Positions 4,444-41,960 of a DNA stretch of 64,000 bases are shown piece by piece; the first letter of the stretch is position 1, and every line of letters begins with the position of its first letter. The notes beneath the pieces were generated by a model. That model saw only the letters and a list, made by a program, of their open reading frames with translations. It had not been told where the DNA came from and ran no database searches. The position numbers and the translations under genes were made by a program. Origin of the DNA: Elusimicrobiota bacterium (GTDB taxonomy: Bacteria; Elusimicrobiota; Endomicrobiia; Endomicrobiales; JAPLKN01); NCBI GenBank assembly GCA_042562855.1, contig JBHPNE010000002.1, positions 7,643 to 71,642 of the forward strand. The letters run 5' to 3'.

Positions 4444-6521
<2,078 letters not shown>

Positions 6522-10300: not shown

Positions 10301-13300
10301 TTAAAAAAAGAAGCAAAGAAAGTCTTAAAGAGAGAATTAAAAGATAAGGAACTAGATCTAATTTATGACATAATATCCATTAATGCAAGAATGTATCCCG
10401 GTTATATTTCAAAAAACGATATGTTACAAATACTTGCTGAAGAGATTAAAATGATTATTAATAATTTTAATAATGTGTTTGGCAAGCTACCTTCCGAAAA
10501 AGAGTTGAGCTTATTTTTTGAAAATATAAAATTGAGCCCCGATATTCAAGAGACAGAATCGGAAATGAACAAGATAGTAGAAAAAATACTTAAAGTAAAT
10601 GAGATGTATGACAAATATTTCAATCGTGAACCTGATATCGAAGAATTAATGTTTATTATAGGCCAAATAAATAGCAAGAAAAATAAGGATGATATTATTG
10701 CTGGTATAGAAAAAATACTTGAAAGCATAAAAATAATAGTTAAAGAGTATACACATGAAAAAGAACTTACAAGAAACGAAATTATCTATATTTACAAAGA
10801 GGAGCTAAAAGCCAGCAAACCAAACAAGGAAAAAATATATTTGAAAATGTTGTTAATTCAAAATATATTTAGGCAAAATGTTAAAAGACTTCCCAACGCT
10901 AGAGAAATGAAGTTAATTTCATACAAAACAGAAAGTCAGGAGGAGATAATTGAAAGAATAGAACAAATATCTCTGGTAAGAAAATATGTAAAAGACGAAA
11001 TAAATTATTTACATTTAATGGAGCTAACAGAAATATTAGTAAACAATATCTTAGACATAAAAAAAGGTGACAGGAAGCGCAAGATAACTAAAATATTAAA
11101 AAACTTGAAAATACTTAAGGATGTTTATAGGGAAATATTTGGTTTGCCCGTAATTATACGGGATGCGGAATCTTACAGGAGACAAATCGGAGAAGAATTT
11201 AGTGAGCAAACGGTAAGAGAATATTTATTGAACGTAAAATCACAAAAAGATGAAATTAAAAGGGTTATGGAAATACTGGCAATATTATACGACGAGGGAA
11301 TTACCGGAGTAAAAAAACAAGAATTTATCGATGCGATTGCATACCAATACGGTGTAAATATTGCGAATCTGTTCAGAGAATCATTAATTGACGGCATGGA
11401 ATATATGATAGAATCCCCGGTTACAAATAATATTGATTTCAAAGTATCAGATGAGTTAAAAAGTAAATACGGCGATAAGAATAAAGACAATACCGAATTT
11501 ATATTGAAAAGGATAAGTGAAGCGATATATTTGAAACAAATAGATGACATGCTTGAGGATAAACTGGAGATCACAAGCAGTCTCATTTCACAAAGAGATG
11601 ACCATTTGACTTTTAAAATACGAATAAAAAATGAAGTTGACGAAAAAATGATTATATTTCCGATAAGTAAAAGTAAGAAAAAATATTTTGAAATTGAATA
11701 TCAGATGCTTAAAAAACTCGGGAGTCTGCTCGGTACATTGGAAGTATCGGCAGAAACAGAAGAAATATGCATGAGAAGCGGAAAGTTGGAAGCAATAATA
11801 ATGGAAGACAAAATCGATAAGGAGCAATATGAAACCTTACAAATGATATTAGAGTTTCACATAGAACGGGCCTTGCAAATAGCAGCCGGTAATAATGAAA
11901 TTAGCATATTTAATATTGATGAATATAAAGACAATTATGAAGATGTTTCAAAAGATGCTGCAGAAACATTAAAAAATATAATAATCGAGGCAAAAGAAAT
12001 TTTAGGAAGAAACCCTAGTCTTAAGGAAATATTGGGGATCTCAAAAATTTACTTGAAAAAGCCGCATATAACATCAATTGGGGTTTCTGTTAAAACGTAC
12101 GTAGGAGAGATAACGGAAAAGAGAGCAATAAGGCTAGCGTTCGCTGTGGGTATCGTTAGAGCTTGGCTGAATGATGGCGTTGATACAGATGAATTGTGCA
12201 AAACTTTATATTTAAAATTGATAGAAAACATAAAATCGGAGAAAGAAATATTTGACGATATTGAAAATATTGCAGTAGAATACTTTAGCAGTAACCCTAA
12301 TGTCGCTTTCAAAAATGAATTTAAGAAACAGTATAACTTGGAACAAAAAAGTAACGAGGAAATTATTATCGGTATATTGGAAGATGTATTTGGATCGGAA
12401 TATTTACCGTATAAAGCTGAGCTAATAAAGTTGCGAATGGCGGAAATAGAATTTGATAAAAGGGCGCCTCTGGGAAGGAATATTGTAGAAGTATGGATTA
12501 ATGGGTCACAAAAGGGAATGTTTGATGTAATGTCAAAATTAAAATATGCAAATTGGAGAAAGCTGGAATCAAGCCTCATTAGTATTTTAGATATAAATGC
12601 GGTAAAGGAAATAAAAGCTTTGGAAAAATATAATTCAACTTTCGTTGTCGATGAATCGAAGTACAAAAATTTATTAGACAGAGTTACAAGCTATTTGTCA
12701 AAATTCAAATTATCATATAGCAGCAATATTGATAGCGAAAAATCAAAAAAAATAATAGGAGATCTGGAAAACTTAAAACATGGCATCAAAAATGCACTAT
12801 TAGAATATTACAAAAACTTTGGCATAAATCGAGGAGATAATTTAAATAATGATGTATCTAAATGTTTGCGGACTGTAGTTTTACACGGTGAAGATCCGGA
12901 AGAGGTAGTTAAAAGGTTAGGTTTAAAAGTTTTAAGTAATATGGGGCTTGAAGGCGCACAAGGACAAGCACAGCAGGTGGAACTCACTCAACCAAAAACA
13001 ATTGAGGAAGCGGTTAAAGATTTTACTTCCCAAAATGGCAGTCAAAAAGAAATCAAGGCCCAAAATATTGCGGTAAAACTCGGGAAAAGGTATGAAAATG
13101 AAATTACTTTAGAAAAATTAAAAAACCGTGAAATATTTAAGACAATTAAAAATCTTGTGAAAGATGAGTTCTATAAAAGTGACGAAATGATAAGGTTGAT
13201 AGTACTATATGCGGCTCTATACAAGGCTCCTCGCACAGAGGCATTCAAGCTAGCATTCAGATCCAAAAAATTTGTTGATGGGCATAAAAACTTCAACGTA

Positions 13301-16300
13301 AAACAAAAAGGCAAACTGCTAGAAAAAACCAAAGAGATCCAGGAAAAAGGTTATAGTCTGAAAGTGGCACGTGGGCTTGCAATTATTGCAGCAATTGCAG
13401 CATTTGCAGTTACATTTGCAGTATTTGTTATACCGATTGCATTTATAAAATTAGTAATGAGTATGGTTACTGTGACCATAGCCTTTTTTGTGCCCCCGCT
13501 CCCATATTATAAAAAAATAAAAGGGATACATTTTGAAGAGAATTTAGAATTTCTTAAAACTGGAAAAGGCTTACTTCTTATGCAAGAGGATGGAAAAGAA
13601 AGCGCAGAATTAACTCTTGTAGAAAAGCTGAAAAAGAAATTTACTACCCCTAAAACTATAGATTTATCCACATTTGATTTTGATGCAATGGTTAAATTTG
13701 CAAACGAAAATAAAAAAAGTAATATGTCCTCGGATGTAATATTTGTATGCGTAATCCATGCGTCTATAGAAATTTATGGTCGTTACCAAAATAGTATCAA
13801 TGTACAATTAAAAGAAAAAATAAGTGAGAAAATTATTTACACTTCTTCAGGAGAAGACCTTAGAAAATTATTTAGTGAATTATTGAATTATAATCCTGAT
13901 ATTAAAGCTATGTCTGATTTAGAATTAAAAATAGATTCAAAAATAATTCGAGAATTTGTTAATAAAAGTATAGATGATGCCATAGAAAAACATGAACATA
14001 AAGGGTTGGTAATGCAAATAAAAGATGATATTTTAGAACAAATATCTTACAAGCAAAGAATTTTGGAACAAATTCTGGAAATAATACCCGATGAGCTAAA
14101 AAAAGGTATTACTGCAGAAAAAATACAGGAATCAGTTATTACTGATAATATTGATAATCAGTACAGGTTAAAAAACAACCTGCCCCCAACAATAGTTTTT
14201 AGCGGTGACTTATTCAAGGGATCGTTAAAAGAAACTCCTGACTATATTGCTTTCACTATTGATAAAGAATTTGTAGCAGTAAATACTGTTTTTGGAGAAT
14301 TTGGAAAAGGGGGATTAAGATATTATCCGCCTTCTTCAGAAGAATTTTATGACAGCAAGATTAAAGGAGAAGCTGTAAAACAAGTTTTTATAGAAGATAT
14401 TGATCTTGCAAATGCTATGGATTTAAAAAATATATTTGCAGATGTATTTTTCACTGGTGGGAAAACAATTATTTTAGCAAAACCTACCGTTAAAAAGGAG
14501 GAAGCATTAAGAACACATAAAGATGGAATCATTGAACGTTGGGCCGCTTCTTCAATAATGGCAGGTATGCTCTGCACGCATTACATAGCCGGTCCAGATA
14601 TGAATGCAGGTGACAATGATATGCAGAGGTTAGTTGAAATAGCAGATGCTGTTCAACGTGCTTTATATGAAATGGATCCTGAAAAATATGCCCACTTTAG
14701 AGAACCTTTAAGAGCCACAACTAGTACACCAGACGGATTTTCGCATATGAATTGGCAGGTAACAAGTACAACAGTGTTGTTTGCGCTTCTAACATTACTT
14801 CAGGATAAAAAGGTATGCGAAAAATATGATATTAAAAAAGACGAAAATGGAGATATCAGTATTATTATACAGGGCTTCGGAGATGTTGGAAGTGGTATAG
14901 TAAAAATACTGTATGATACTATAAGGTCCGAAAAAGAGATTATTAAAATTGACAATATCGAGTATGATGTTGATATTATTGAAAAAAATAGAATTTCTCC
15001 AAATCAAACAGAAATTAACGGAAGGAAATACAAAACAAAAAAAGTAAATGAAGATTACATACTACGTCCTGATTATGGAATAAAGGTTGTTGGATTGACT
15101 ACCAGTTGGATGAATGATGAGAATAATCCTGAAATTGGTGGTATATACAACGAAAATGGCTTAGATCCGGACGAATTGATACGGTTGAGAGAAAAAATAG
15201 AAAAATATGGTACAACATCGGTAAATCTTCATAAAGATTATAATGATAAAGAAGATACCGGTGTAACAGTAAGAGGGAGTAGCCGTGACGTGCTAACAAA
15301 GCCAGCCAACTTTTTAATTCCTGCAGCAGGGCCGTCGCAATTTACAAGCAGAGAATTAGAGCCTGACCCACAAGCTATAATAGACAACGGTTATGTTCTT
15401 GTTGAGGAGCTCGATGTAGATGGCGTAATTGAAGGAGCCAATGATTCTTTCAAGAAAGGTGTTGCGGAAATATTTCATCATGTTTTGCATAAGTTATTTT
15501 TGCCAGGTCCAATGTGTAATGCAGGCGGAGTACAGACATCTCAAGATGAATGGACGTACATTATTTTGATTGGATTGGAGGAAGTAATAAAAAATATGCT
15601 AAGTCTAAGAGAAATAACACGTTCAAAAATTACCACTTTAACCATTTATAATATACGAAGAATTTTAGAGGAGTTGAAAAAATCCGAATACAAAAAAACC
15701 CCATCAGATATTTTAGACGAATTTGTAAATTCTATTAGAGATCAAATGAAAAACATTGATGAATATGATCAGATTATTATTGATCGAATTACTAATACTA
15801 TTATTGATAAATTTCGTAATAGAAAAGATATTGCAAAAATAATTGCAGAATTTACTTATGCAAGAAGAAAAGCAATGAATAATATTGAAGTATCGGACGA
15901 AGCGATAGATGATATTATTCAAAATATTAAGCAAGGAGATCATTTTAAGGCCAGGTCATCAGCATATGAGCTTAGGCTATTGGATCTTAATAGACTATCG
16001 GCTAAGAAAAGATATGCATTAGTTATGAGATTAATAGGAATTGTAAGGGATATAGGATTATCGTATAAAATTCGCGGCGCAGTAGTTGACAGTTTATCTT
16101 CTATTGCAATAAACACTCCTGATACTATTGAGGGGCAAAGATTGTCTGATGCCATAAAGCAAAGTCTGAACTCATTAATTAATAATCCTAAATTCCTTAA
16201 TCTGTATCCATATATTTGGTCGACTAATCTTAGGATCAACCATTTTAAAGTTAAACATGATGAAAAAATTGAGCAGGGAAAACTGCCAAATGTAGAATCA

Positions 16301-19300
16301 TTAGGTTTTCTAAAAAAGCATGGAACATCTGGCTGGCGCAAAGGCTTAAAAGCTTCTTGGGAACAGGATTTAGCTTGGGAACAGGATCTAACAAATCTTG
16401 CTATTGAAATGAAGCTCGAAAAGAATTTTCTTAAAAGATCTCATAAAAGAGCGTTTATCATTGAAGTACAAAAAAAAGTAGAAAAATACTTCTATTCACT
16501 CAACAAAGATAGAAATATACAGAAAATAAAAGATGAAAAAGAACCTGGAATATTCAATACTCCTGTTCTCGCAACTTACAATCGAGAATTTAAAAATGAA
16601 ACAATGAGGTATGCATTGCGCCATGGGCTTTTGTCTAAAGTTCCTACAGTGGGGTATCTTCGTGAAAATATTGAGAAGTATAGAGAGCATTATGAAGCAT
16701 TTGATTATTCCGGTGATAGTGCAAGTGCATCACGGTTGACGGTTGAAAACATGAAAGCGTTGGAAATAGTGGTGGAGATGGCTGAGAATGATGAAATTGA
16801 TAATGATACAAAGGTAGATATTGGTTTTATGAATTGTTCAATGAAAGATGAAAAAAGGATAGTAGTGTATAGGTTTAAGGGAAAACACGTGATAGAAACT
16901 CAGAAATATGAATTAAACAGTGCAGGCGATAGCGTTGTGCAGATTGGGGAAATACTAGAAGTATACACTTTAGATAAGTTTAGAAATATTAACGACGCTG
17001 AGATTAAAGAAAAGTTAGTTCATTTGTACAACAATGGAGTATTGATGTATTACCTAGAAAAATTTGTAAAACTAGAAGGCAATGAAAACAATATTCAAAT
17101 TCTTAATAACATTAAGAGAGTGTTAGAAAAGTTCAAATGGTCTAAAGCCAAAGAAGGCTTTGAGCCTGGCGATGTTGCACTAGCATTTCATAGCCAAGGA
17201 TATAGAATAGGTAAAATATTTGGTGATGCTAATTTGTCACTTATTACAGACACTCGTCAAAAAAAGGACAAGTTGCCCTTTGTAAATGAATCGAGTATTA
17301 AAAAGGCCATTGAATTCTTTAAAGAGCCTAACAAATCCGAGCAAGAAGAAATAAGCAACTTTTTTGATAATTTCGAAGAAAATTATGGATATAAATGGGA
17401 CGAAGCCCTCGGCAGTACCATAGTTCAGCAAATTGCAGGTGCAGGGGAATATGTAAGCATTCCGTATGACCACTTTGTAAAAATATATCTTTGGGCAGCA
17501 TACAAAATAGCTCCGTATAAGGAAGACATAAGAGATAAATCGTTTGCCAAGGGGCATATACACTATACTCCGGATCAAATAAAGGAAGTAGATAACGATG
17601 TTGAAAAAAGTATTGCAAAAATTGAAAGTATAGATGATCTTGTTATGGACCTCATAATTTCTTTCGTTGACTATTCTCTGATTCCAGAAATTCAGAAAGA
17701 AGCTACAAAATTAGCGGAAAGCATTTCAAAAAACATTAAAGATGGAATGGAGTCCATACTTCATCTTAAACACAATATAGAGACAGTGCCAGGTGAAGGA
17801 TTGCCTTGGGTGCAAGATGAAGATAGTGAAAATCTAGAACAACTAAAACAAGGTATTTTTGATAAAATAATGAAAGCAGAGGAATCTTCTCTCAAACCAC
17901 ACAAACCATATTATGATGAAGATGAATCAAAAAAACAGGCAAAAGATCTTTCTGAGGCAATAATTAAAAAAGACACTGATGATATTCGTTTTTATGTGAA
18001 AAAAATAGTGTTAAGATATGCTGGAGCGGATTCTGAGCATTTTCAAAGTACCTATTTTGACATAGTCAGGTACTGCAAAAAACTTGCTTGGTATCTTGGA
18101 GAATTGAAAGAAATAGAGGAATATTCACCGTATTTTGAAGTGATAACAGTAGCAATGGTGCAGTCATATGAAATGATAATCCCAATTATTGAACAATCTA
18201 TCATAACATTAAACGAAGAAAAAAATGATAATTACTGGACTAAGGGAAATGCAAAGGCAATAACGGAAGGATTAGGGGGGGTTACAGAAGGAGTCAATAA
18301 TTTATTAACAGACTTTAATAAAAAATTTGTTACCTCAAATATGGTTAAAATTTGTAAGGATTTGAAAGGAAAAGCTGATAAACTCGAAAAAAGTACAAAG
18401 GAATTCTTGAAACACATGGATGCAGTGATTGAACTTATGGAACTTATTAAAATAGTGATAGTGGATGAAAAAAATGTTCCGTTTGATAAGCTTAAGCTTG
18501 GTGAGGATTTGAAAGGTAAGTATATCATGAAAGTTGGTTTGGTAGAGATTATATGGGGTACCGATAAGGATAAAGTCCTTGGCATGCTCCGTGAGTTTGT
18601 GACACATGATTCTCGTAAATATGTAAAGCATGAGTTAATTTATATTTTAATAGAATACATAGGAAATACATTTAAACTTGATGCAGCCTTTTTTAATCAT
18701 GATGATGTGAAAGCGTTTATTCCTGAGCTTGTGCGTAAAAAAATAATTAAAAATATCAAAGAGGGAGAAAAATGGTATAAACAGACAATACATGACCCGC
18801 TTATTGTGGAAATATTGGAAGAAAGTTATAAAATAAAAGGTACGGCAAATAGACATGCACTAAACAATTTAGTCGAAGGAATATTTCTAAATGATAAAGA
18901 TGCAATCATTTATGGTATCAGAGAGTTAACAGCGGACAACATAAAGAAATCTGAATCGTTTGAAGAAAAATATGGCGATGCAATACAGTTTTGTAATGAT
19001 TATATTTATTTTATGGGTAAATTGAAAGGCAGAGTTGAATTTGAATCACATTTTAAGGCAATAACAGTGGCTATGGCTCAGGCGTATAGAAACATAGCTT
19101 CAATTGCGACCGAAGCGATAAAAAAGTTGGAAGAAAATGAATATGAAGAGCAATCAGTTGCAGCAAACAGGAATGCGATTTTGAAAGTATTGGAAGAATT
19201 GGACAAGAATTCTAAGGAGCTTCTGACTGGATTTTCGCCTGAATATATTAATGATGAAATGGTTAAAATTAAGAAGGAACTTGAGAATGAAGTATGGCAG

Positions 19301-22300
19301 CTTATGGTGTCAGATATTCAAATTGATAATGAACTTAAAAGGTATGCGGAAAAGCTTAAATTTGATCCCGAAGAATTTATTTATCTCAAAGGGTTATATA
19401 AGCAATTTATAGAAAGCGTTGGGAAGAAGGAGGTTGCAAAGATATATCTCGGAGACAATTTCAAAAGTGCATCGCAAATGTCAGAAACAGAGAGGAGAAA
19501 ATGGTTTGGTCCCGAATATAATGATATTAAAAAAGATCATAAAAAAAATGTTAAAGCTGCCAAGACAGTAAATGTTATAGAAAAACGTATGAATGGAGGA
19601 ATTTGGACATCTGCTCTGGAAAAAATGGAATATTTAAAGAGAATATTGAACGATTTGTCTGATAGGGGAGGAAGGTTTACAAAAGATGGAAAATGTTTCA
19701 TTGGCCCAAAATCTACGGATCTTTTCTTTGATGTCGAAGGAGTTATCTATATTGATAGCGAAGGCAAGGAAGGATTGCGTACAGTAAAAGTAAATATATC
19801 AGAAGCAAGAATATTGCAGTTGCTAGAGTCAGTTGAGAGAAAAGAATATGCTAGTGTTTCCATACAACAATTGGCAAGTCAAAAAACAATAGATGCTATA
19901 AATGACCTATACGATACAATCTATTTGTACGACAGGATGGATGATAGGATCCCCAGTGATAAGAAGCGCGCTTATAAGGAAATACTGGAAGAATATGAAA
20001 TGTATAGGGAGCCGTTAATCCAGGGAACCCTTCCGACCATTGATCCCAAAACAAATAGATTATCAGAAAAATTTCTTGCACCCGGAGGACATGGATATTG
20101 GGCTTTTAAAGAGTTCTTAACCATTCTAGGGGTAGAAAAAGAGGAAGCTGAAAATATTATTGTTGTTATAGCTAATGAGGACGGGCTTAATAATTTATAC
20201 GATCAGAATTTAATAGGGTATATGAAACGCACTGACCTTCCGGTTATGTTACTCTCGACAACAAGAACAGCTTTAGATAATAAAGGAGGTTTATTTGGAA
20301 TATTAGAACGTATTCTTGCAATGCTAGAGGCAAAGGAAGCAGAATTATCAGGCAGAGATAAACTTGGAATGTTTTATAAAATGGGACTTATACCGGGTTT
20401 TGGAGAATTGGGCAAAGAACGATTCAATCTTAATACGTCATTGTTTAATGTTGAAAAACTTTCTCCGCTTCTGAAAGAGCTTGTTGATGATATAATTGGC
20501 AAAGAGCGGTTTTATGAAATTATAAAACCTCCATTATTGCAAAATATTAAAAAAGGAGAAGTTGGAAATCCTAATGATCCACCAAGAATTCAGATGGAGG
20601 GATTGTTGGCATCAGTTATTTTAGAACTTAACAGTTATTTTTTATTATTAGGAGATAGTCCAGAAGATAGTAGAGTAAAAAATTTGCTTAGAACAAAAGG
20701 AATATTAAGAAAAAATGATAAGGGGGAAGAGATTGTTCGTTTTGTTGAAGTTATCAATATAGACACTGAAGATAGGACAGATTTCTTTACTCCTATAAAA
20801 ACACCGATTGATTTTTGCTTACAATACAATAGTGATTTATTTGGAGTTAATGCAAAGACATGGAAATTAAAATATCAGAAAAAGGGTGCATTGCCTGCCT
20901 TTCAGCTACATCCTTTCTATAACAGTCTAGACCAAATGGAAATAGCATTTGGTAATACAAGTACAGTTGGTCTTAAAGCACTCACAATAAATGGCAAAGT
21001 ATATTTTCCTGACACAATATTGGAAGGAAATGTATTAATGGCGTGTTTTACCGATGAACCATTTGATTTAACGCTTCAAGAGAACAGAGAACAATTGATA
21101 GAAGTTTTTGATTTGGCACTTCAAGAGAACATGATAGAAGTTGGTGGAGGATCTGGGATAAGCGAGGTAGATGGAAAACTTAAATTAAAAAATATTGCGA
21201 TAACAATCGACAAAGATGGAAGAATTTCTGTTAATGGAATGGGTAAACTTTCTGAAGAAAAAATGCTGATTTTGCCCATAACAAAGAAAATTTCTGCAAG
21301 AATAATTAGATTGTTTGGAGGAGATCCCGCAAAGCATCAGAAAGTCTATAAAGCTTTGGCTTTCATTCTGGCACCTATAATAGAAACGGTTCTATTAATA
21401 TTTTATTACCTCCCATCTGTTTTTTCAAAATCTACTGAAGACCATCCAACGGGCCTTTCAAAATTCGCTGAAGACCATGACCCTGCGACACAAGAAGAGA
21501 GAGGTCAGCTTAAAAAAGGGGTAAAAGCTGTTGTAAAAACGGGCCTTCTTTTTGCATTTGCTGCAGGGATTTATTTCTTATCTTTATTCATATTGAACCC
21601 TTCATTAGCTTTGATAGCATCTAATTGGTTATCGAACGCTCTAGAAATATTAGTTTTGTTTGTTGTAGGATTAGTTGCGGGACACGCCGGAGTAAACATT
21701 GTAATTTGGAGGAAGCAGAAGCATTTAATTATTAAAAGAGATAATGACACTATAATACAGGTTGATTCTCCTGACGACGGAGCAAAATTCGCTGTTGATA
21801 AACTTGCGAGAACTATCAGGGAAAATGATATTATAGGCAAGGAAACAGTGGTAATGTTAGCTACTGGTGGTACTATGGAGCCGTTTTATAACGAACTTGT
21901 ACGCAGAAACAAATTGAGCTCAAAACATAAAAATTATCTTAATCTCTCTAACTTGATTATTTTTAATTTAGACGAATATGAAGGAATTGAAATTTTCAGA
22001 AATGAGATTTTTGAAAATTTAATAGAAGAAACAAATGTAAATCCTGATAATTTCTATTTCTGGTATGGTAAAAATCCGATAAAAGAACAAATAGAACGAA
22101 TGGAAAAACTGATTTCAAACTACGGCGGGATTGATTTTGCTTTCGTAGGTATAGGCGCAAACGGCCATGTAGGGAAAAATGAGCCTGGGACAAATCCGGA
22201 AGTTTCTGGAGCAGTTGTGATAAGTCCGCAAACAAGGCGTGACAACGCCAGGGCGTTTGATAATAAAGAAGAATTAGTCCCGGAAAAGTGGTTCGGTTTT

Positions 22301-24922
22301 GGCTTGGAGCAGATTTTTGCAGCCAAAGAAATTTATTTAATGGTATACGGTCATAGCAAAGCAGGGGCAATATTAAAAACTCTAAATGGGCCGGTTACGG
22401 ACAATGTCCCGGCAACCTACTTTAGAAATCATCCGAACATGCACTATGTTTTGGATAAAAAAGCTTCATCTTATCATTTAATATTTGAACAAGTGGTAAA
22501 AATGCTGGAGGATCAAAAAAAGACAAATGTAGGCATGTTATATGGCGGATCAATAAGGGGCATTATTGTAGGGTATCTAGAATCTCGTTGTCCAATAAAT
22601 GAAATTGCCCCGGATCTTGGAAAAGATTTTGGCATAGCTGTTTCAAAGCAATATGGGAAAGACGATTACCTAAATTCATCTGAAATTGAACATGCAAGAG
22701 ATTTGGCGAATCTTGGCGGTGCAAGAGTTGTTGTTGCTATGCCCTTGCCCGAAGGAATAAACAAGAGAAACTTTAAAGAGCATTCCCTAATAAATATGTG
22801 TGATACAACCGAGAAACTATTAGGGTTTCGTATTGTTGGCAAAGGAAGATCAAACGTGTATGCTACCGAAATCAAGACAAATAAAGGCAAAGTAGCGGTA
22901 TTTTTCTATAACAAAGCAAAAGTGGAACATGGTTTTGAGATAATGCATTGGATAACAGAAATGCCTGTTACGTTAGAGGTTTTGCATAGGTCCTTTAAAA
23001 ATTTTAACTTAAAAGTAATTGAAACTGATAGACCAATATCCTTGGAAGATTTTGATATCAGTAAAAATTTTGAAAATTCTATCATAGTGTTTAACAAAAT
23101 TGGAGACCTCAAAAAAGATAGAGTCAAAACTGGTTATGATATGACGCTAACAGAAAAAACCGATATATACGATTATTTTATTCTTCTAAATAATTTTGCA
23201 AACAGAAAGAAAGAAGAATTTACTGCTTCCGATCCTATTATTTCTGAAACTATAAATATTAACGAAAATATTGAAGAATTGGAATCTTCTTTATCGGAAG
23301 AAAGCCTGGATAACATGCAAAAAAGGAGTGTCGATACTATAGTGCTCAGGTCTTTGCCTGAACAATTATCATCAGAATGGTTAGAAAAATTGAGCAACGC
23401 AATAAATTTGGCCCATAACAAAAAATTGAAAGTGGTAATTGACTATACAGTCAATAAAAAGTTCACGCAAAATAACTACATGGAAAATTTTTCTGCCGAC
23501 ATGAAAGTTATTCTTAAAAAATCAAACGCGGACGGCGTAAGATTGGATTTCTCAAGCTTGAAGTTAGGTTTAGATAATTATCCAAGATTAGGAATGCTTG
23601 CTATTAAAAAATTCAAAAGCACCATAATAAAATTGAGAACCATAATAATTAAAACAAAACCGGGGGCAATAGTTGGTAGTATTTTGCCTGAGATTTTATT
23701 CCCTGAGACAATGAAGCCTAAGATTCCAATTAAAATCACTCCTGAATCTTCTAAGATGACTGATGGTGAAAAATTAGTGCGGAAGATATATCTTGAAGAT
23801 TTAGACAGGCATTATTTTGAAAAATACAAGAATAGTTATCTTGAAGAAACGGATTTGGAAATTTCGAAACTCTTTAAGAATCTTAATATTAAAAAGGTTG
23901 TAAGAGTTTTATTCGGAAACAATATTCCAGAAAATACATCCAATTCCTGGCTTGAAATCTGCTTAAATGACAACAAGGGCTTAAAAGTGCCTTTAGGCGG
24001 CTTTGGTGTTGATATCAAGGAATTAGAAACCAAATTGTCAAAAGATTTAATAAAGGATGTGGAGATTTTAGGATTGCCGGCTGAACTGGCCAAAGAGATT
24101 TTTGAGACATATGAAGCTCGTTCACTAATAAGCAATATAACTCAACTGTTTAAAAATAAGATTGAAAGCAGAAAAAATAGTCCTGATTATAGATTTCAAA
24201 AGGGAAGACACAGAGCTCTTAATATTAAGAAAAGATACATAGTGCCATACACAGGCAGTGAAAAAATAGCAACTATTGTTCAAGTTTTAAGTGAATATCT
24301 AAGCTTAGATGATGAAAATGTGGAATCGTGGTATAAGAAAAACGAAGCAGTATTGAAAGCATTATTAGAAAAGCATGATTTGAAAATCTTGAATAACTCT
24401 GCAGATGTGAAAAAACAATCACAGATTCATGAAGCAGCCGGATATTTGCTCGGATCCGCCGAAAGAGTTCTTGCTGAAGACCTGATAAAAAAGGAAAACT
24501 TTACAAAGAAGCACGCCGAGTTATACGCAATGGCGCACGTTAAAACTCTTTTACAACCTCATCTTATTCATGCTGATTCCATGAAGAGTGATTTTTCAGG
24601 TTTAAATCCTGAGACAGTACATAAAGCATCAAATTATTTTGATCAGTATAAAAAAGCGATGGCCCTGGCAAATGAAGCTATACGTTTACATGGCGAAAGC
24701 GGGAAATATACTGCTGAAGAAGTATACGATATTGCGGATGAAGCAATAAACCTATTGGCTGATTTACTTGAAAACACGACACCAGCAGGTCAAGCTGCGA
24801 CTACGCTTCAGGAGCTCCTTGATGTTTTTGGAGACAGAGAATCAGGATCCTTAGCTGAAAAAATCGGCAAAGAAGCCATGATCAGTATCGAAGCGGTGCA
24901 AAGCATAACCACTGCTGCATAA
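7355..24922 (+). CDS. Giant multidomain membrane protein (5,855 aa), function unknown
   Basis: Single open frame of 17,568 nt. GGAGG lies 6 nt upstream of ATG 7355, and a terminator lies about 25 nt after the TAA. No other frame in the same span stays open beyond ~205 codons. Contains TM segments and three enzyme-like domains (listed as sub-features). Confidence 0.85.
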   Translation: MSKIKRIFEKVSERYLKKLSIPEPFVEVFVNFKKGIAVTTALAFLFTSVFAQSIFAFTDTKDFSDKKVRETLNTFTIPYTIGRVTDGKYYGSKKIVINIQDLHCHAEVQGNINKIIGLLDDAYSISKVYIEGSSGDLDTSWVKAIKNEQLRNKIVETFVESGRLTGAEYYSIQKNKPKMLKGVENERIYKNNVVRLGKILDQREEIAAQIPAVKQELSRLKDKYYSRYNKRLEKLLTRYGNNEINTEKFYRLLEKLAKKSKVDFYEFDTIKKLISLMKEQKRLKYKIISKQLASYVKHLKDKMPYATYKLLLEKTSNFSKLDEVYTHLKKLSYAYKINLSTKYSELNKFFDFIDANQKINPIDLVSEERKLIQKIHQKTSQNIAEGEIAFISDFFAYLEEYLNNKISANDYEYFQRNSKDFKKLWAKYVYSEKITNLAPYYDLFDVFYKVNIERNKYFIENTLGNIPVLNSGISPVADINHIDETLKSLKNAKEIIVLVTGGFHTEGLERLLSRREVSYLVITPNVTKDTKFADTVYNKFAKQQAKRFASQTMALEAYSKSLATGTMDEIKLKVVRDFAQDQLKIAFKGKKPEKIAEDINSVFQNKENNLEGSFSYFPEKSSEKGNKYYFEYKYKDKTVSLLLSAEDEITIFDTKFHYFKYLLNSKEIVKKEDEKAVSWDLNKIMQSAQAKNLVDLINELVELEEESGQYLTEFNKSIKVVFIEMVKNKIRSQQTLEDIAEDFGFSRDDTIQFRKSLASTGLAFATRQEESLTLKSTYRKYKSLYNFFHRKKNHLPEDWTNREKYGDEYVKQMKNAEIWLAPIVEYAKIRRISNAWNEKKKELINEFFGGHEWNEDQEKRKYAKGGIKDISESMEKGSVIGTTLGIIIGLTIQITLWMIFSIEKMSALGVVTMLYIATPVIFIILASSLGAFIGHAVSHRKYDKEYGTKTKAEKEKLEREGKEVIEAPLTTDVTTFELLELYLKKEAKKVLKRELKDKELDLIYDIISINARMYPGYISKNDMLQILAEEIKMIINNFNNVFGKLPSEKELSLFFENIKLSPDIQETESEMNKIVEKILKVNEMYDKYFNREPDIEELMFIIGQINSKKNKDDIIAGIEKILESIKIIVKEYTHEKELTRNEIIYIYKEELKASKPNKEKIYLKMLLIQNIFRQNVKRLPNAREMKLISYKTESQEEIIERIEQISLVRKYVKDEINYLHLMELTEILVNNILDIKKGDRKRKITKILKNLKILKDVYREIFGLPVIIRDAESYRRQIGEEFSEQTVREYLLNVKSQKDEIKRVMEILAILYDEGITGVKKQEFIDAIAYQYGVNIANLFRESLIDGMEYMIESPVTNNIDFKVSDELKSKYGDKNKDNTEFILKRISEAIYLKQIDDMLEDKLEITSSLISQRDDHLTFKIRIKNEVDEKMIIFPISKSKKKYFEIEYQMLKKLGSLLGTLEVSAETEEICMRSGKLEAIIMEDKIDKEQYETLQMILEFHIERALQIAAGNNEISIFNIDEYKDNYEDVSKDAAETLKNIIIEAKEILGRNPSLKEILGISKIYLKKPHITSIGVSVKTYVGEITEKRAIRLAFAVGIVRAWLNDGVDTDELCKTLYLKLIENIKSEKEIFDDIENIAVEYFSSNPNVAFKNEFKKQYNLEQKSNEEIIIGILEDVFGSEYLPYKAELIKLRMAEIEFDKRAPLGRNIVEVWINGSQKGMFDVMSKLKYANWRKLESSLISILDINAVKEIKALEKYNSTFVVDESKYKNLLDRVTSYLSKFKLSYSSNIDSEKSKKIIGDLENLKHGIKNALLEYYKNFGINRGDNLNNDVSKCLRTVVLHGEDPEEVVKRLGLKVLSNMGLEGAQGQAQQVELTQPKTIEEAVKDFTSQNGSQKEIKAQNIAVKLGKRYENEITLEKLKNREIFKTIKNLVKDEFYKSDEMIRLIVLYAALYKAPRTEAFKLAFRSKKFVDGHKNFNVKQKGKLLEKTKEIQEKGYSLKVARGLAIIAAIAAFAVTFAVFVIPIAFIKLVMSMVTVTIAFFVPPLPYYKKIKGIHFEENLEFLKTGKGLLLMQEDGKESAELTLVEKLKKKFTTPKTIDLSTFDFDAMVKFANENKKSNMSSDVIFVCVIHASIEIYGRYQNSINVQLKEKISEKIIYTSSGEDLRKLFSELLNYNPDIKAMSDLELKIDSKIIREFVNKSIDDAIEKHEHKGLVMQIKDDILEQISYKQRILEQILEIIPDELKKGITAEKIQESVITDNIDNQYRLKNNLPPTIVFSGDLFKGSLKETPDYIAFTIDKEFVAVNTVFGEFGKGGLRYYPPSSEEFYDSKIKGEAVKQVFIEDIDLANAMDLKNIFADVFFTGGKTIILAKPTVKKEEALRTHKDGIIERWAASSIMAGMLCTHYIAGPDMNAGDNDMQRLVEIADAVQRALYEMDPEKYAHFREPLRATTSTPDGFSHMNWQVTSTTVLFALLTLLQDKKVCEKYDIKKDENGDISIIIQGFGDVGSGIVKILYDTIRSEKEIIKIDNIEYDVDIIEKNRISPNQTEINGRKYKTKKVNEDYILRPDYGIKVVGLTTSWMNDENNPEIGGIYNENGLDPDELIRLREKIEKYGTTSVNLHKDYNDKEDTGVTVRGSSRDVLTKPANFLIPAAGPSQFTSRELEPDPQAIIDNGYVLVEELDVDGVIEGANDSFKKGVAEIFHHVLHKLFLPGPMCNAGGVQTSQDEWTYIILIGLEEVIKNMLSLREITRSKITTLTIYNIRRILEELKKSEYKKTPSDILDEFVNSIRDQMKNIDEYDQIIIDRITNTIIDKFRNRKDIAKIIAEFTYARRKAMNNIEVSDEAIDDIIQNIKQGDHFKARSSAYELRLLDLNRLSAKKRYALVMRLIGIVRDIGLSYKIRGAVVDSLSSIAINTPDTIEGQRLSDAIKQSLNSLINNPKFLNLYPYIWSTNLRINHFKVKHDEKIEQGKLPNVESLGFLKKHGTSGWRKGLKASWEQDLAWEQDLTNLAIEMKLEKNFLKRSHKRAFIIEVQKKVEKYFYSLNKDRNIQKIKDEKEPGIFNTPVLATYNREFKNETMRYALRHGLLSKVPTVGYLRENIEKYREHYEAFDYSGDSASASRLTVENMKALEIVVEMAENDEIDNDTKVDIGFMNCSMKDEKRIVVYRFKGKHVIETQKYELNSAGDSVVQIGEILEVYTLDKFRNINDAEIKEKLVHLYNNGVLMYYLEKFVKLEGNENNIQILNNIKRVLEKFKWSKAKEGFEPGDVALAFHSQGYRIGKIFGDANLSLITDTRQKKDKLPFVNESSIKKAIEFFKEPNKSEQEEISNFFDNFEENYGYKWDEALGSTIVQQIAGAGEYVSIPYDHFVKIYLWAAYKIAPYKEDIRDKSFAKGHIHYTPDQIKEVDNDVEKSIAKIESIDDLVMDLIISFVDYSLIPEIQKEATKLAESISKNIKDGMESILHLKHNIETVPGEGLPWVQDEDSENLEQLKQGIFDKIMKAEESSLKPHKPYYDEDESKKQAKDLSEAIIKKDTDDIRFYVKKIVLRYAGADSEHFQSTYFDIVRYCKKLAWYLGELKEIEEYSPYFEVITVAMVQSYEMIIPIIEQSIITLNEEKNDNYWTKGNAKAITEGLGGVTEGVNNLLTDFNKKFVTSNMVKICKDLKGKADKLEKSTKEFLKHMDAVIELMELIKIVIVDEKNVPFDKLKLGEDLKGKYIMKVGLVEIIWGTDKDKVLGMLREFVTHDSRKYVKHELIYILIEYIGNTFKLDAAFFNHDDVKAFIPELVRKKIIKNIKEGEKWYKQTIHDPLIVEILEESYKIKGTANRHALNNLVEGIFLNDKDAIIYGIRELTADNIKKSESFEEKYGDAIQFCNDYIYFMGKLKGRVEFESHFKAITVAMAQAYRNIASIATEAIKKLEENEYEEQSVAANRNAILKVLEELDKNSKELLTGFSPEYINDEMVKIKKELENEVWQLMVSDIQIDNELKRYAEKLKFDPEEFIYLKGLYKQFIESVGKKEVAKIYLGDNFKSASQMSETERRKWFGPEYNDIKKDHKKNVKAAKTVNVIEKRMNGGIWTSALEKMEYLKRILNDLSDRGGRFTKDGKCFIGPKSTDLFFDVEGVIYIDSEGKEGLRTVKVNISEARILQLLESVERKEYASVSIQQLASQKTIDAINDLYDTIYLYDRMDDRIPSDKKRAYKEILEEYEMYREPLIQGTLPTIDPKTNRLSEKFLAPGGHGYWAFKEFLTILGVEKEEAENIIVVIANEDGLNNLYDQNLIGYMKRTDLPVMLLSTTRTALDNKGGLFGILERILAMLEAKEAELSGRDKLGMFYKMGLIPGFGELGKERFNLNTSLFNVEKLSPLLKELVDDIIGKERFYEIIKPPLLQNIKKGEVGNPNDPPRIQMEGLLASVILELNSYFLLLGDSPEDSRVKNLLRTKGILRKNDKGEEIVRFVEVINIDTEDRTDFFTPIKTPIDFCLQYNSDLFGVNAKTWKLKYQKKGALPAFQLHPFYNSLDQMEIAFGNTSTVGLKALTINGKVYFPDTILEGNVLMACFTDEPFDLTLQENREQLIEVFDLALQENMIEVGGGSGISEVDGKLKLKNIAITIDKDGRISVNGMGKLSEEKMLILPITKKISARIIRLFGGDPAKHQKVYKALAFILAPIIETVLLIFYYLPSVFSKSTEDHPTGLSKFAEDHDPATQEERGQLKKGVKAVVKTGLLFAFAAGIYFLSLFILNPSLALIASNWLSNALEILVLFVVGLVAGHAGVNIVIWRKQKHLIIKRDNDTIIQVDSPDDGAKFAVDKLARTIRENDIIGKETVVMLATGGTMEPFYNELVRRNKLSSKHKNYLNLSNLIIFNLDEYEGIEIFRNEIFENLIEETNVNPDNFYFWYGKNPIKEQIERMEKLISNYGGIDFAFVGIGANGHVGKNEPGTNPEVSGAVVISPQTRRDNARAFDNKEELVPEKWFGFGLEQIFAAKEIYLMVYGHSKAGAILKTLNGPVTDNVPATYFRNHPNMHYVLDKKASSYHLIFEQVVKMLEDQKKTNVGMLYGGSIRGIIVGYLESRCPINEIAPDLGKDFGIAVSKQYGKDDYLNSSEIEHARDLANLGGARVVVAMPLPEGINKRNFKEHSLINMCDTTEKLLGFRIVGKGRSNVYATEIKTNKGKVAVFFYNKAKVEHGFEIMHWITEMPVTLEVLHRSFKNFNLKVIETDRPISLEDFDISKNFENSIIVFNKIGDLKKDRVKTGYDMTLTEKTDIYDYFILLNNFANRKKEEFTASDPIISETININENIEELESSLSEESLDNMQKRSVDTIVLRSLPEQLSSEWLEKLSNAINLAHNKKLKVVIDYTVNKKFTQNNYMENFSADMKVILKKSNADGVRLDFSSLKLGLDNYPRLGMLAIKKFKSTIIKLRTIIIKTKPGAIVGSILPEILFPETMKPKIPIKITPESSKMTDGEKLVRKIYLEDLDRHYFEKYKNSYLEETDLEISKLFKNLNIKKVVRVLFGNNIPENTSNSWLEICLNDNKGLKVPLGGFGVDIKELETKLSKDLIKDVEILGLPAELAKEIFETYEARSLISNITQLFKNKIESRKNSPDYRFQKGRHRALNIKKRYIVPYTGSEKIATIVQVLSEYLSLDDENVESWYKKNEAVLKALLEKHDLKILNNSADVKKQSQIHEAAGYLLGSAERVLAEDLIKKENFTKKHAELYAMAHVKTLLQPHLIHADSMKSDFSGLNPETVHKASNYFDQYKKAMALANEAIRLHGESGKYTAEEVYDIADEAINLLADLLENTTPAGQAATTLQELLDVFGDRESGSLAEKIGKEAMISIEAVQSITTAA
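7600..8940 (+). other. Giant ORF sub-region: possible Tiki/ChaN/TraB-superfamily-like bilobed domain with a long helical insert
   Basis: VINIQDLHCHAEVQ...VYIEGSSG near 7640-7750 and IIVLVTGGFHTEGL near 8841-8880 resemble the H/E ... GxxH signature of that superfamily. Motif-level only. Confidence 0.25.
9800..10190 (+). other. Giant ORF membrane module copy 1
   Basis: AEIWLAPIVEY ... FFGGHEWNEDQEKRKYAKGG ... two hydrophobic helices (VIGTTLGIIIGLTIQITLWMIF; ALGVVTMLYIATPVIFIILASSLGAFIGHAV). Confidence 0.6.
13185..13550 (+). other. Giant ORF membrane module copy 2
   Basis: LIVLYAALYKAPRTE ... KFVDGHKNFNVKQKGKLLEK ... two hydrophobic helices (GLAIIAAIAAFAVTFAVFVIPIAFI; LVMSMVTVTIAFFVPPLPYY). 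Confidence 0.6.
14180..15700 (+). other. Giant ORF domain: Glu/Leu/Phe/Val-dehydrogenase-like (GDH-like)
   Basis: GKGGLRYYP; LANAMDLKNIFADVFFTGGKTIILAKP; IAGPDMNAGDNDM; IIIQGFGDVGSG; GIYNENGLDPDEL; LIPAAGPSQ; VIEGANDSF; LPGPMCNAGGVQTSQDEW. These are collinear with the canonical GDH motif order. Confidence 0.7.
17938..19303 (+). repeat. Giant ORF internal duplication of a ~150-aa helical module (copies ~17938-18385 and ~18857-19303)
   Basis: FEVITVAMVQSYEMI vs FKAITVAMAQAYRNI; KKDTDDIRFYVKKI vs LNDKDAIIYGIREL; NNLLTDFNKKFVTSNMVKICKDL vs KELLTGFSPEYINDEMVKIKKEL. Confidence 0.7.
19480..21250 (+). other. Giant ORF domain: UDP-sugar pyrophosphorylase-like (UDPGP family)
   Basis: KRMNGGIWTS (compare KLNGGLGTSMG); LAPGGHGYWAF (compare PPGHGD); VVIANEDGLNN (compare VSNIDNLG); TTRTALDNKGGLFG (compare KTRADVKGG); FNLNTSLF; IQMEGLLASV; RTDFFTPIKTPIDFCLQYNSDLF (compare RSRFLPVKTTSDLLLVMSNLY); LTINGKVYFPDTILEGNV C-terminal beta-helix-like tail. 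Confidence 0.72.
21340..21725 (+). other. Giant ORF membrane module copy 3
   Basis: ALAFILAPIIETVLLIFYYL ... KFAEDHDPATQEERGQLKKG ... hydrophobic helices (GLLFAFAAGIYFLSLFILNP; ALEILVLFVVGLVAGHAGVNIVIW). Confidence 0.6.
21765..22480 (+). other. Giant ORF domain: glucosamine-6-phosphate deaminase / 6-phosphogluconolactonase-like (NagB fold)
   Basis: VVMLATGGTMEPFYNEL; IIFNLDEY; FAFVGIGANGHVGKNEPG; RRDNARAF; IYLMVYGHSKAGAILKTLNGPV; VPATYFRNHPNMHYVLD. Collinear with E. coli NagB, with the Asp/His/Glu catalytic positions present. Confidence 0.8.
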
Positions 24923-25895: not shown

Positions 25896-25922
25896 TATCG
25901 ACCAATATTTCAAATATATGTT

Positions 25923-25995
25923 GGGCAGTTAGCTCAGCTGGAAGAGCACTTCCCTTACAAGGAAGGGGTCGTAGGTTCGAACCCTACACTGCCCA
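25923..25995 (+). tRNA. tRNA-Val (anticodon UAC)
   Basis: 73-nt cloverleaf. GGGCAGT/ACTGCCC acceptor; GCTC..GAGC D arm; CTTCC-CTTACAA-GGAAG anticodon arm; GTAGG-TTCGAAC-CCTAC T arm. No CCA. Confidence 0.9.
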
Positions 25996-26034
25996 TTTTA
26001 TTTTTTAGTCAACAATAATTCACCGGAGGGAACA

Positions 26035-41036: not shown

Positions 41037-41960
41037 ATGAAAAAAATATGTATTTTAACCATTCTTTTTCTTTCCTTGACTAGCATGCTTTCCGCAGCTT
41101 TTAAGGATTCTGGTTGGGGAGTTCGCCCTTTAGGTATGGCGGGGGCATTTACTGCCATTGCGGACGATTCCAATGCACCTCTCTTTAATCCGGCCGGTTT
41201 AGCTGTCATGGAAGAGAATGAAATATCATTAATGTCTGCAAAGCTTTTTACAGGGCTTGAAGGCGTGGATATTAGTTTGAATTATTTAACCTATATAAAT
41301 GTGTTTGATGAAAGTGTTGGAAATTTTGGTATTACCTGGGCCGCAATGTCATCCTTAAATTTATACAGAGAGGATACAGTCAATATATCATACGGCCGTA
41401 GTATTTATAGCGACGAATATGATTTAATGGTTGGAGCAAACTTGAAATACCTTTCTCATACATATACTTTAGATGTGAGGACCGCAGACGACCCTGTTTT
41501 TGCAAACGGAACAATAAGAGGCGTCGCAACTGCTGACATTGGATTTTTGTTTATGTTGCCGTATCCTGCAGTCTCCTTTGCCGTTGTAGGGAAGAATTTA
41601 TCAAGCCCTGACATTGGCTTAGAAACTTTAGATAAAGTTCCGAGCGAATATGTATTTGGAGTTTCATATTTCAATGAAAGAATGCCCTATATTACATTTC
41701 CGATGTGTACATTTGCTTTGGATTTGGTAAGCAGAGATAAAACCATGGATTACCGGTTCGGATTTGAAACATGGATATCTGACGAACGATTAGCGATACG
41801 TTCCGGAATATGCTCTCAGTCATTTAACATAGGTGTCGGATATGAGTTTGAGGTTATGTTTGATAAAGCACTTTCCGTTGATTATGCATTTGCTTTTCCT
41901 CTTGAAATTGAGGAGACAACAGGATCTCATCGAATCGGATTAACCTTCCGTTTTCCTTAA
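41037..41960 (+). CDS. PorV/PorQ- or UPF0164-like outer-membrane beta-barrel protein
   Basis: 307 aa with a signal peptide. GWGVRPLGMAGAFTAIADDSNAPLFNPAGLA is the hallmark N-terminal motif of that barrel family. Terminal ...GLTFRFP. Confidence 0.55.
   Translation: MKKICILTILFLSLTSMLSAAFKDSGWGVRPLGMAGAFTAIADDSNAPLFNPAGLAVMEENEISLMSAKLFTGLEGVDISLNYLTYINVFDESVGNFGITWAAMSSLNLYREDTVNISYGRSIYSDEYDLMVGANLKYLSHTYTLDVRTADDPVFANGTIRGVATADIGFLFMLPYPAVSFAVVGKNLSSPDIGLETLDKVPSEYVFGVSYFNERMPYITFPMCTFALDLVSRDKTMDYRFGFETWISDERLAIRSGICSQSFNIGVGYEFEVMFDKALSVDYAFAFPLEIEETTGSHRIGLTFRFP

Follow-up and report, generated by a model that had tools for sequence, protein, structure and literature searches.

A UDPGP-superfamily domain with an altered nucleotide-binding loop in a giant protein of an Elusimicrobiota bacterium

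A 64,000-nucleotide stretch of an Elusimicrobiota genome (contig JBHPNE010000002.1, positions 7,643 to 71,642; hereafter the window) contains an uninterrupted open reading frame (ORF) of 17.6 kb encoding a protein of 5855 amino acids (aa). The protein is 100% identical to MFC1500921.1, which carries the NCBI name 'hypothetical protein ACFL58_00525 [Elusimicrobiota bacterium]' and is encoded on a 78.6-kb contig of a metagenome-assembled genome (MAG). With a G+C content of approximately 31-36% along the giant ORF, a stop-free frame of this length is impossible by chance. An initial annotation, made from the sequence alone, had assigned positions 19480-21250 to a UDP-sugar pyrophosphorylase (UDPGP-family) domain with an altered glycine-rich loop. 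The analysis confirmed that the giant protein contains a genuine UDPGP-superfamily domain. The annotated end of the domain was exact, while its start has to be moved approximately 220 nt upstream, to the opening of the family envelope at 19259.

7355..24922, + strand: giant ORF, 5855 aa, 17.6 kb
19259..21250, + strand: UDPGP-superfamily domain, aa 3969-4632; limits from the family hidden Markov model (HMM) envelope, with support from Pfam PF01704, an AlphaFold2 (AF2) model and Foldseek

The UDPGP-like domain and its active site

Scanned alone, the UDPGP-like domain matched PF01704 (UDPGP) with E=2.2e-9 and 37.0 bits, a score above the gathering cut-off of 22 that places it in the family. The match is limited to profile positions 148-249 of 413. 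No family other than PF01704 was found in the Pfam scan of the isolated domain, and no match to PF00483. A phmmer search of the domain against PDB sequences retrieved exclusively UDP-glucose pyrophosphorylases (UGPases), save one marginal unrelated chain. We also used a profile of alignment A1, which comprises the window domain and 19 stand-alone members of its clade (see below) of approximately 600 aa (20 sequences). This profile matched 16 PDB sequences, all of them eukaryote-type UGPases with T. brucei 3gue as the best (E=4.6e-20), and no UAP or USP chain was among the matches. Individually, 15 of the 20 A1 members matched PF01704 (best E=3.7e-20).

The AF2 model built with the A1 alignment reached a pLDDT of 87.3 and a pTM of 0.89 and was used instead of a single-sequence AlphaFold prediction, whose pLDDT was only 32.8. 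Its N-terminal part is helical, its catalytic core is Rossmann-like, and its C-terminal part is a beta-helix with strands at query residues 496-525 and 562-589. Together with the Foldseek matches, the model displays the three-domain UDPGP architecture including the C-terminal left-handed beta-helix. The top 35 Foldseek matches in the PDB were all UGPase chains (E 8e-22 to 8e-17) from Arabidopsis, sugarcane, Aspergillus, yeast, human, Leishmania and T. brucei. UGPase matches showed target TM-scores of about 0.58-0.66 and an identity of 15-18% over approximately 540 aligned columns, among them 1z90, 2icy, 2i5k, 3r2w and 4r7p. Leishmania USP and UAP1/AGX1 ranked below the UGPases, with E values of about 1e-11 and TM-scores of 0.39-0.49. 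The superposition on UGP and UAP1 proposed with the initial annotation thus favored the former, and the modelled fold is UGPase-like over its entire length and resembles UGP more than UAP or USP.

All nine motifs quoted in the initial annotation were found in frame in the giant ORF between aa 4077 and 4560. They are given below with the invariant lysine of the IGPKS motif. Residue equivalences were taken from HMMER alignments to UGP chains (motif and profile). Conservation counts, like the lengths and fusion counts given further below, refer to the best 150 of 286 phmmer matches of the domain, in which 158 domain copies were found by the A1 HMM.

19583..19618, + strand: nucleotide-binding loop KRMNGGIWTSAL, from aa 4077; Trp4084 codon TGG at 19604-19606
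19709..19711, + strand: Lys4119 of the IGPKS motif, equivalent to hUGP1 K127 and AtUGPase K99 by motif and profile alignment; invariant (142/142)
20078..20107, + strand: APGGHGYWAF, from aa 4242; His4246 equivalent to hUGP1 H223 and AtUGPase H192 (His in 148/149); aligned to APPGHGD of L. major UGP
20165..20194, + strand: VIANEDGLNN, from aa 4271; Asn4274 and Asp4276 equivalent to hUGP1 N251 and D253 (Asn in 150/151); aligned to SNGDNLG of yeast and T. brucei UGP
20261..20299, + strand: TRTALDNKGGLFG, from aa 4303, with Asp4308, Lys4310, Gly4311 and Gly4312; aligned to KTRADVKGG
20423..20446, + strand: FNLNTSLF, from aa 4357, corresponding to canonical FNTNN; Asn4360, equivalent to hUGP1 N328, kept; the profile alignment pairs FNtN with FNTNN
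from 20588, + strand: IQMEGLLASV, from aa 4412; IQMEG paired with YQLET
20774..20815, + strand: RTDFFTPIKTPIDF, from aa 4474; Lys4482 equivalent to hUGP1 K396, the RFLPVK lysine (Lys in 146/146); aligned to RFLPVKT of yeast Ugp1
20942..21250, + strand: C-terminal beta-helix-like subdomain including LTINGKVYFPDTILEGNV (aa 4543, 20981); aligned to LDHLTITGNVFLGKDVTLRGTV of yeast Ugp1

The collinear pairing of these motifs with UGPases was reproduced at residue level by the phmmer alignments to PDB chains, which pair APGGHG with APPGHGD, IANEDGLNN with SNGDNLGA, TRTALDNKGG with KTRADVKGG and IQMEG with YQLET. Further pairs were FFTPIKT with RFLPVKT and, in the C-terminal tail, LTINGKVYF...LEGNV with LTITGNVFL...LRGTV; the beta-helix tail of the initial annotation is borne out by this alignment to yeast Ugp1 and by the strands of the model. 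In TRTALDNKGGLFG, the aspartate is conserved in 152, the lysine in 146 and the two glycines in 149 and 151 of 153 copies, and its residues align with K256 and G258 of the AtUGPase KGG motif. The window residues at catalytic or ligand positions (M4079, G4081, G4082, K4119, G4245/H4246, N4274, D4276, K4310/G4312, E4325, N4360 and K4482) are all present, in clade columns conserved to 93-100%.

Many of these positions have known functions in characterized enzymes. AtUGPase contacts uridine through Gly87, Gln162 and Gly191, glucose through Leu85, Asn220, Gly258, Glu271 and Asn293, and phosphate through His192, Lys256 and Lys99 (PMC5832301); the phosphate contact is shared by hUGP1 K127 (PMC5381698, PMC5832301). 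The nucleotide-binding loop of UGPases normally closes on the nucleotide phosphates (PMC5832301, PMC5381698). The equivalents of hUGP1 G115, G116, K127, H223, N251, D253, N328 and K396 are all eight kept in the window domain. Mutation of such residues left hUGP1 with at most 0.15% activity where the protein was still soluble: G115D 0.004%, G116A 0.07%, K127A 0.15%, N251L 0.01%, D253L 0.06% and K396A 0.04% (PMC5381698 Table 2).

The nucleotide-binding loop departs from its relatives at its third glycine. In the clade it has the consensus PMDGGIGSSVxR, which is near the canonical KLNGGLGTSMG, and the third glycine is also present in canonical UGP, UAP and USP loops. The register M-N-G-G-I-W-T-S of the window copy aligns without gaps to M-[ND]-G-G-[IL]-G-[ST]-S of the clade. 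As the first two glycines are kept and the third is Trp4084, the domain lacks the L-x-G-G-x-G-T/S loop; it also lacks the clade signature [ML]-[DNQ]-[GA]-G-x-G-x-S-x-x-R, whose G and R are lost to W4084 and E4089. The alteration suspected initially is real, and narrower and sharper than described, a tryptophan at the third glycine in 1 of 140 aligned copies.

A bacterial clade of UDPGP proteins and its fusion partners

A phmmer search of the domain against 1.84 billion representative proteins yielded 286 matches at E<=1e-3, of which 114 had E<=1e-30. Because the canonical families (UGP, UAP and USP) have far more members than the 286 proteins found, the query does not reach them, which argues for a separate, deep branch. 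Matches to the 149 other representatives ranged from E=1e-134 to 1e-24, and the window domain, itself one of the 20 sequences from which the profile was built, matched the clade HMM over positions 15-606 of 609 (E=1.5e-186). Named members belong to MAGs of Candidatus Omnitrophota and Elusimicrobiota and carry the NCBI name 'UTP--glucose-1-phosphate uridylyltransferase'; a 7066-aa JGI member is named 'phosphoglucomutase'. We also scanned genome contigs (one genome per GTDB species) with two clade motif patterns only, based on a five-sequence alignment (A2). The scan detected 18 loci, 10 in Omnitrophota, 5 in Elusimicrobia/Elusimicrobiales and 1 labelled Deltaproteobacteria, taxon counts that represent a biased sample. 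At the sequence level the clade is a discrete bacterial UDPGP branch, mainly of Omnitrophota and Elusimicrobiota, and the earlier impression of a family sparse in bacteria does not apply to the relevant bacteria. The literature searched contained no link between UDPGP and Omnitrophota.

Nor is the fusion within a giant membrane protein unexpected, as the initial annotation had supposed. Among the 150 best matches, 71 proteins have at most 750 aa and 79 are longer than 750 aa, including 11 with more than 3000 and 6 with more than 5000 aa; these lengths are lower bounds, many sequences being metagenome fragments. Members of the clade are thus normally embedded in large proteins, and Omnitrophota proteins of 1,700 to 7,900 aa contain relatives of the domain. 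Two or more domain copies occur in 4 of the 150 listed representatives. Over the 30 columns of highest conservation, embedded copies were as well conserved as stand-alone ones (mean 0.72 versus 0.70 deviations, Mann-Whitney p=0.74). The embedded domains, taken as a class, resemble functional enzymes.

A PGM/PMM domain was the fusion partner detected most often, and in 8 relatives it is located downstream of the UDPGP-like domain. It follows closely in P0064 (UDPGP-like domain 137-762, PGM/PMM 780-1291), P0018, P0025, P0057 and P0003 and at a greater distance in P0027, whose Pfam list comprises UDPGP, PGM_PMM I-IV and ADK. PGM and PGI were listed for P0082, which is flanked by an NDK and GH2_C protein and by a 9457-aa protein, Glucosamine_iso and UDPGP for P0090, and a weak ROK match for P0115. 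The NDK domain is part of a 1643-aa protein beside a giant of the UDPGP clade. One of the stand-alone members overlaps with the end of a gene for a WecG-type glycosyltransferase within an exopolysaccharide cluster that also encodes GT2, GT4, Wzy_C, a pyruvyl transferase and a hexapeptide transferase, and another, from an Elusimicrobia MAG, has a PGM/PMM gene 2 kb upstream. Such fusions and neighborhoods are as expected of an enzyme that uses a sugar-1-phosphate and feeds glycosyltransferases.

Loci with giant proteins of the clade frequently contain additional, very large genes next to the giant, for example a 9457-aa ORF in L005 (16861-20533) and ORFs of 1076 and 1354 aa without Pfam annotation in L007 (1-4955). 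This suggests that loci of the UDPGP clade hold clusters of giant genes.

Remaining parts of the giant protein and the surrounding locus

Beyond the UDPGP-like domain, the following features were assigned.

7427..9214, + strand: N-terminal module, aa 25-620; no Pfam family, shared with relatives
13352..13507, + strand: hydrophobic cluster, aa 2000-2051, probably a two-helix hairpin (Kyte-Doolittle), with K/R-rich flanks
14303..15556, + strand: GDH-like (Glu/Leu/Phe/Val dehydrogenase) domain, aa 2317-2734; PF00208 E=1.6e-11, highly divergent
21341..21712, + strand: hydrophobic cluster of 3-4 helices, aa 4663-4786, starting about 30 residues past the UDPGP-like domain
21818..22471, + strand: NagB-like (glucosamine-6-phosphate deaminase) domain, aa 4822-5039; PDB 2bkv E=6e-30, PF01182 31.6 bits (gathering score 27)
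54661-57294: stand-alone, normal SecA gene

Motifs of the N-terminal module are DLHCH and GGFHTEG, and its residues 35-58 form a hydrophobic anchor. The module matched no Pfam family, and in the PDB only a phosphoserine phosphatase, marginally (E=0.011). The same module forms the N-terminus of 11 other large UDPGP-clade proteins, P0134 and P0003 being approximately 40% identical (E ~1e-135), and it looks like a shared 'head' of the giant proteins of the clade.

Hydropathy analysis indicated transmembrane (TM) clusters at aa 35-58, 877-939, 2000-2051 and 4663-4786, with K/R-rich flanks facing the large soluble segments. By the positive-inside rule, these flanks point to a cytoplasmic location of aa 2052-4662 and of the C-terminal, NagB-like segment. 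The UDPGP-like domain would probably lie between two TM clusters on the cytoplasmic face, and the cluster at aa 2000-2051 would hold the segment with the GDH-like and UDPGP-like domains in the membrane at its N-terminal end.

In addition to its PF00208 match, the GDH-like domain gave a PF02812 match below the gathering score (E=0.0076) and contains the motifs GKGGLRYYP and GFGDVGSG; phmmer found no PDB match at E<=0.01. It was present in none of the other 149 clade representatives. The NagB-like domain follows directly on the TM cluster at aa 4663-4786 and retains NLDEY and NGHVGKNEPG (NGHxGxNEPG). Its pairing with UDPGP recurs in P0090, where the domain order is reversed.

A helical module of approximately 230 aa is duplicated within the protein, at aa 3531-3758 (17945-18628) and aa 3838-4067 (18866-19555), just upstream of the UDPGP-like domain and reaching into its N-terminal part. 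The Smith-Waterman score of the two copies was 191, compared with 42 +/- 7 for shuffled sequences; self-BLAST of the giant protein gave no internal repeats, and the duplication was found only by Smith-Waterman alignment with the shuffle control. It may be the remnant of a second, tandem UDPGP-like copy. P0002, P0003, P0008 and P0085 contain UDPGP-like domains in tandem.

Downstream of the NagB-like domain, aa ~5313-5400 (~23291-23554) matched MupG_N (6-phospho-N-acetylmuramidase, E=0.0013) and GH5 cellulase (E=0.04), both below the gathering scores; this region could be TIM-barrel glycosidase-like. Even when the giant protein was divided into ten segments for the Pfam scan (E<=1), the larger part of it had no match.

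The neighbors of the giant ORF are of chromosomal type, with SerRS, BioA/BioD-like, PolA, Rho, SecA, Lnt, a type II secretion system ATPase and three tRNAs. The ORF is followed by tRNA-Val (25922-25996) and by a gene (26035-27960) whose 641-aa product contains a GH2 TIM-barrel domain (E=1.6e-12). A GH2_C domain fused with NDK and ILEI is also found beside a giant protein of the UDPGP clade in the related locus L005. Between 28111 and 41035 lies a series of same-strand ORFs of 160-770 aa, and the seven that were scanned had scant or zero Pfam annotation (sub-threshold FlgD_ig only). The series is closed by a PorP/SprF-like gene (41037-41960), and the whole may represent a cell-surface or secretion locus.

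Proposed role, alternatives and comparison with known systems

We propose that the domain is a sugar-1-phosphate uridylyltransferase module of the bacterial UDPGP clade in a membrane-tethered multi-enzyme protein, with slow or altered catalysis in the window copy, and give this reading a probability of about 0.6. Homology suggests that the clade would catalyze the conversion of sugar-1-phosphate and UTP to UDP-sugar and pyrophosphate in both directions, the likeliest substrate being a hexose-1-phosphate such as glucose-1-phosphate. The UDPGP-like domain would be one station of the tethered polypeptide, with the GDH-like domain upstream and the NagB-like domain past the next TM cluster, and its presumed cytoplasmic placement would give access to NTP and NAD(P). 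UTP and hexose-1-phosphate would be bound and UDP-hexose formed as in the homologues; with tryptophan in the loop and without the arginine, catalysis would probably be slowed or nucleotide handling altered, and binding may be kept. The NagB step would convert glucosamine-6-phosphate to fructose-6-phosphate and ammonium, the latter possibly taken up by the GDH-like domain. With the enzymes found across relatives, fructose-6-phosphate could then be turned into glucose-6-phosphate (PGI), glucose-1-phosphate (PGM) and UDP-glucose (UDPGP-like domain) and enter a glycan. The partners assembled from these relatives would be NagB, PGI, ROK kinase, phosphoglucomutase, adenylate kinase and, in a neighboring large protein, an NDP-kinase domain. 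This scheme from NagB to UDP-glucose is coherent but unproven.

Several observations speak against this reading. The third glycine of the loop, equivalent to hUGP1 G118, is tryptophan only in the window copy and glycine in 139 of 140 aligned clade copies. Five residues further, Glu4089 replaces a clade-specific arginine (R in 135/140), and Leu4359, seen only here, replaces the threonine of FNTN (Thr in 149/152). With 3 deviations in the 30 most conserved columns the domain ranks in the top ~7% of copies (9 of 130 have at least 3; median 0), and a neighbor-joining tree, from which no phylogenetic conclusion was drawn, places it among other long branches. The 0.07% activity of the hUGP1 loop mutant G116A implies that Trp4084 may abolish catalysis. 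Moreover, the topology is based solely on hydropathy and the positive-inside rule, and no biochemically characterized clade member was found in the literature searched. Finally, Pfam scans of the giant protein detected no PGM, PGI, glycosyltransferase or kinase domain; the pathway logic is consequently borrowed from relatives.

The loop in particular raises the possibility, which we regard as real but clearly less probable than the proposed role, of a pseudo-enzyme that lost catalysis through Trp4084 and persists as a sensor binding UDP-sugar or nucleotide or as a structural scaffold. The exchange at a glycine kept by all but one copy, the two further deviations at near-invariant positions and the sensitivity of hUGP1 to mutation of its loop glycines G115 (G115D, 0.004%) and G116 (PMC5381698) are in line with this idea, as is the lower AF2 confidence around the loop (pLDDT 65-82, model residues 41-80). 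However, 27 of the 30 conserved positions and all eight residues tested in hUGP1 are retained, which speaks for an active site still under selection, even if binding alone could also explain it. The third glycine itself, G118, is not among the hUGP1 mutants of that study, and Lys4090, which adjoins Glu4089, could replace the lost arginine. In our view catalysis of the window copy is probably weakened or altered, while nucleotide or UDP-sugar binding may remain. That the tryptophan is merely an error of MAG assembly or sequencing, GGG having been read as TGG in a protein that really contains glycine, appears very improbable. A single contig carries the giant protein and provides no independent confirmation, and TGG is one substitution away from GGG; on the other hand, GGG is the rarest glycine codon of the ORF (47/303), the two glycines before Trp4084 are encoded by GGA, two steps from TGG, the rest of the 17.6-kb ORF is intact, and the two other deviating positions in the same domain are what real divergence would give.

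An amino-sugar substrate is another, unlikely alternative. The domain would then be a UAP-like pyrophosphorylase for UDP-GlcNAc or UDP-GlcN, acting with the NagB-like domain and the possible MupG-like region in the salvage of amino sugars or peptidoglycan sugars. The clear NagB-like match in the same polypeptide (2bkv) fits such a function, and so do the NagB-UDPGP pairing of P0090 and the weak MupG_N match; furthermore, according to a speculation in the preprint on Omnitrophota giant genes, such giants could use their glycosyltransferase domains to turn cell-wall breakdown products into storage compounds. The MupG match, however, is under the Pfam gathering score, the UGPases are clearly closer in structure than UAP1/AGX1 (Foldseek E ~1e-21 versus 1e-11) and account for all PDB profile matches, and the PGM/PMM domain as commonest partner, with PGI also found, suits glucose as well as amino sugars. 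A chance resemblance without any homology to UDPGP has a probability close to zero. It could be read into two negative results, namely that UDPGP was not listed at E<=0.1 when the giant protein was scanned with Pfam in halves of 3000 and 3355 aa and that no NCBIfam model matched in a search with the clade, but it is refuted by the PF01704 match of the isolated domain (E=2e-9), the PDB profile match (E=5e-20), the full-length Foldseek match (E=8e-22) and the collinear catalytic motifs.

Beyond the proposed uridylyltransferase role, one may speculate, with little confidence, that the clade is a standard block of 'metabolic assembly-line' membrane proteins in Omnitrophota and Elusimicrobiota. With NagB, PGI, PGM, kinase and pyrophosphorylase as fused stations, these would channel phosphates of hexoses and amino sugars to nucleotide sugars at the membrane, and the station with the tryptophan would here have changed from a catalyst to a UDP-sugar sensor gating the NagB and GDH domains next to it. 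Regardless of this, the clade constitutes a previously undescribed bacterial branch of an otherwise mainly eukaryotic family. Its recurrent 'Rosetta-stone' fusions with phosphoglucomutase and other sugar-phosphate enzymes offer a testable role for part of the largely unannotated giants of Omnitrophota and Elusimicrobiota. Formation of UDP-sugars would be an added candidate activity of these giants and fits earlier speculation that scavenged sugars are converted to glycans or storage polymers. A natural Gly-to-Trp exchange with every other catalytic residue kept provides a ready test of loop tolerance and, at the same time, of the decay of enzyme domains of giant proteins into binding modules. 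Existing ideas are not overturned by these findings, and we consider their value moderate.

Very long ORFs, several TM clusters and divergent metabolic-enzyme domains are features that the window protein has in common with the giants of Omnitrophota ('Archaeovorins', sugar-metabolism module). The latter are TM-rich and carry divergent PGM/PMM, PGI, TIM, FBPase, ROK, GT5 and GT1 domains, the localization of which is debated (bioRxiv 10.1101/2023.11.21.568195, 10.64898/2026.06.07.730766). UDPGP, pyrophosphorylase, GDH and NagB domains are mentioned neither in these two preprints nor in one supplement. In contrast, the window protein comes from a MAG labelled Elusimicrobiota, has 5855 aa and showed no SecA_DEAD, HEAT, GT5 or dockerin domain in Pfam scans. 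An Archaeovorin-type identity in the sense of West-Roberts et al. (2023 preprint) was rejected, since the SecA DEAD-like, HEAT and GT5/GT1 domains of that type were not found in these scans and the length is not far above 10,000 aa, so that multiple TM clusters are the only common trait.

The usual bacterial route to UDP-glucose is the GalU-type UGPase (NTP_transferase, PF00483), which catalyzes the same reaction. It belongs to another Pfam family, to which the window domain has no match. UAP1/AGX1 and USP share the superfamily and the reaction type, and an amino-sugar substrate would be in keeping with the NagB-like domain of the same protein; the structural match to them is much weaker, and they are missing from the profile matches.

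The closest relatives are the eukaryote-type UGPases of PF01704 (UGP2, Ugp1p, AtUGPase and Leishmania UGP). Compared with solved structures, the window domain is approximately 130-200 residues longer (664-aa HMM envelope versus 469-528 aa), with about 25 extra residues between the nucleotide-binding loop and the GPKS lysine and with extra N-terminal helices. Identity in the structural alignment is just 15-18%. The arginine behind the nucleotide-binding loop is specific to the clade, and the tryptophan at the third glycine as well as the context of a 5855-aa membrane protein distinguish the window copy. Common to both are the three-part fold including the C-terminal beta-helix, with a TM-score of 0.66 on the target, and the collinear series of motifs from the nucleotide-binding loop through the GPKS lysine, PGHG histidine, NxD, KGG and FNTN to the PxK lysine.

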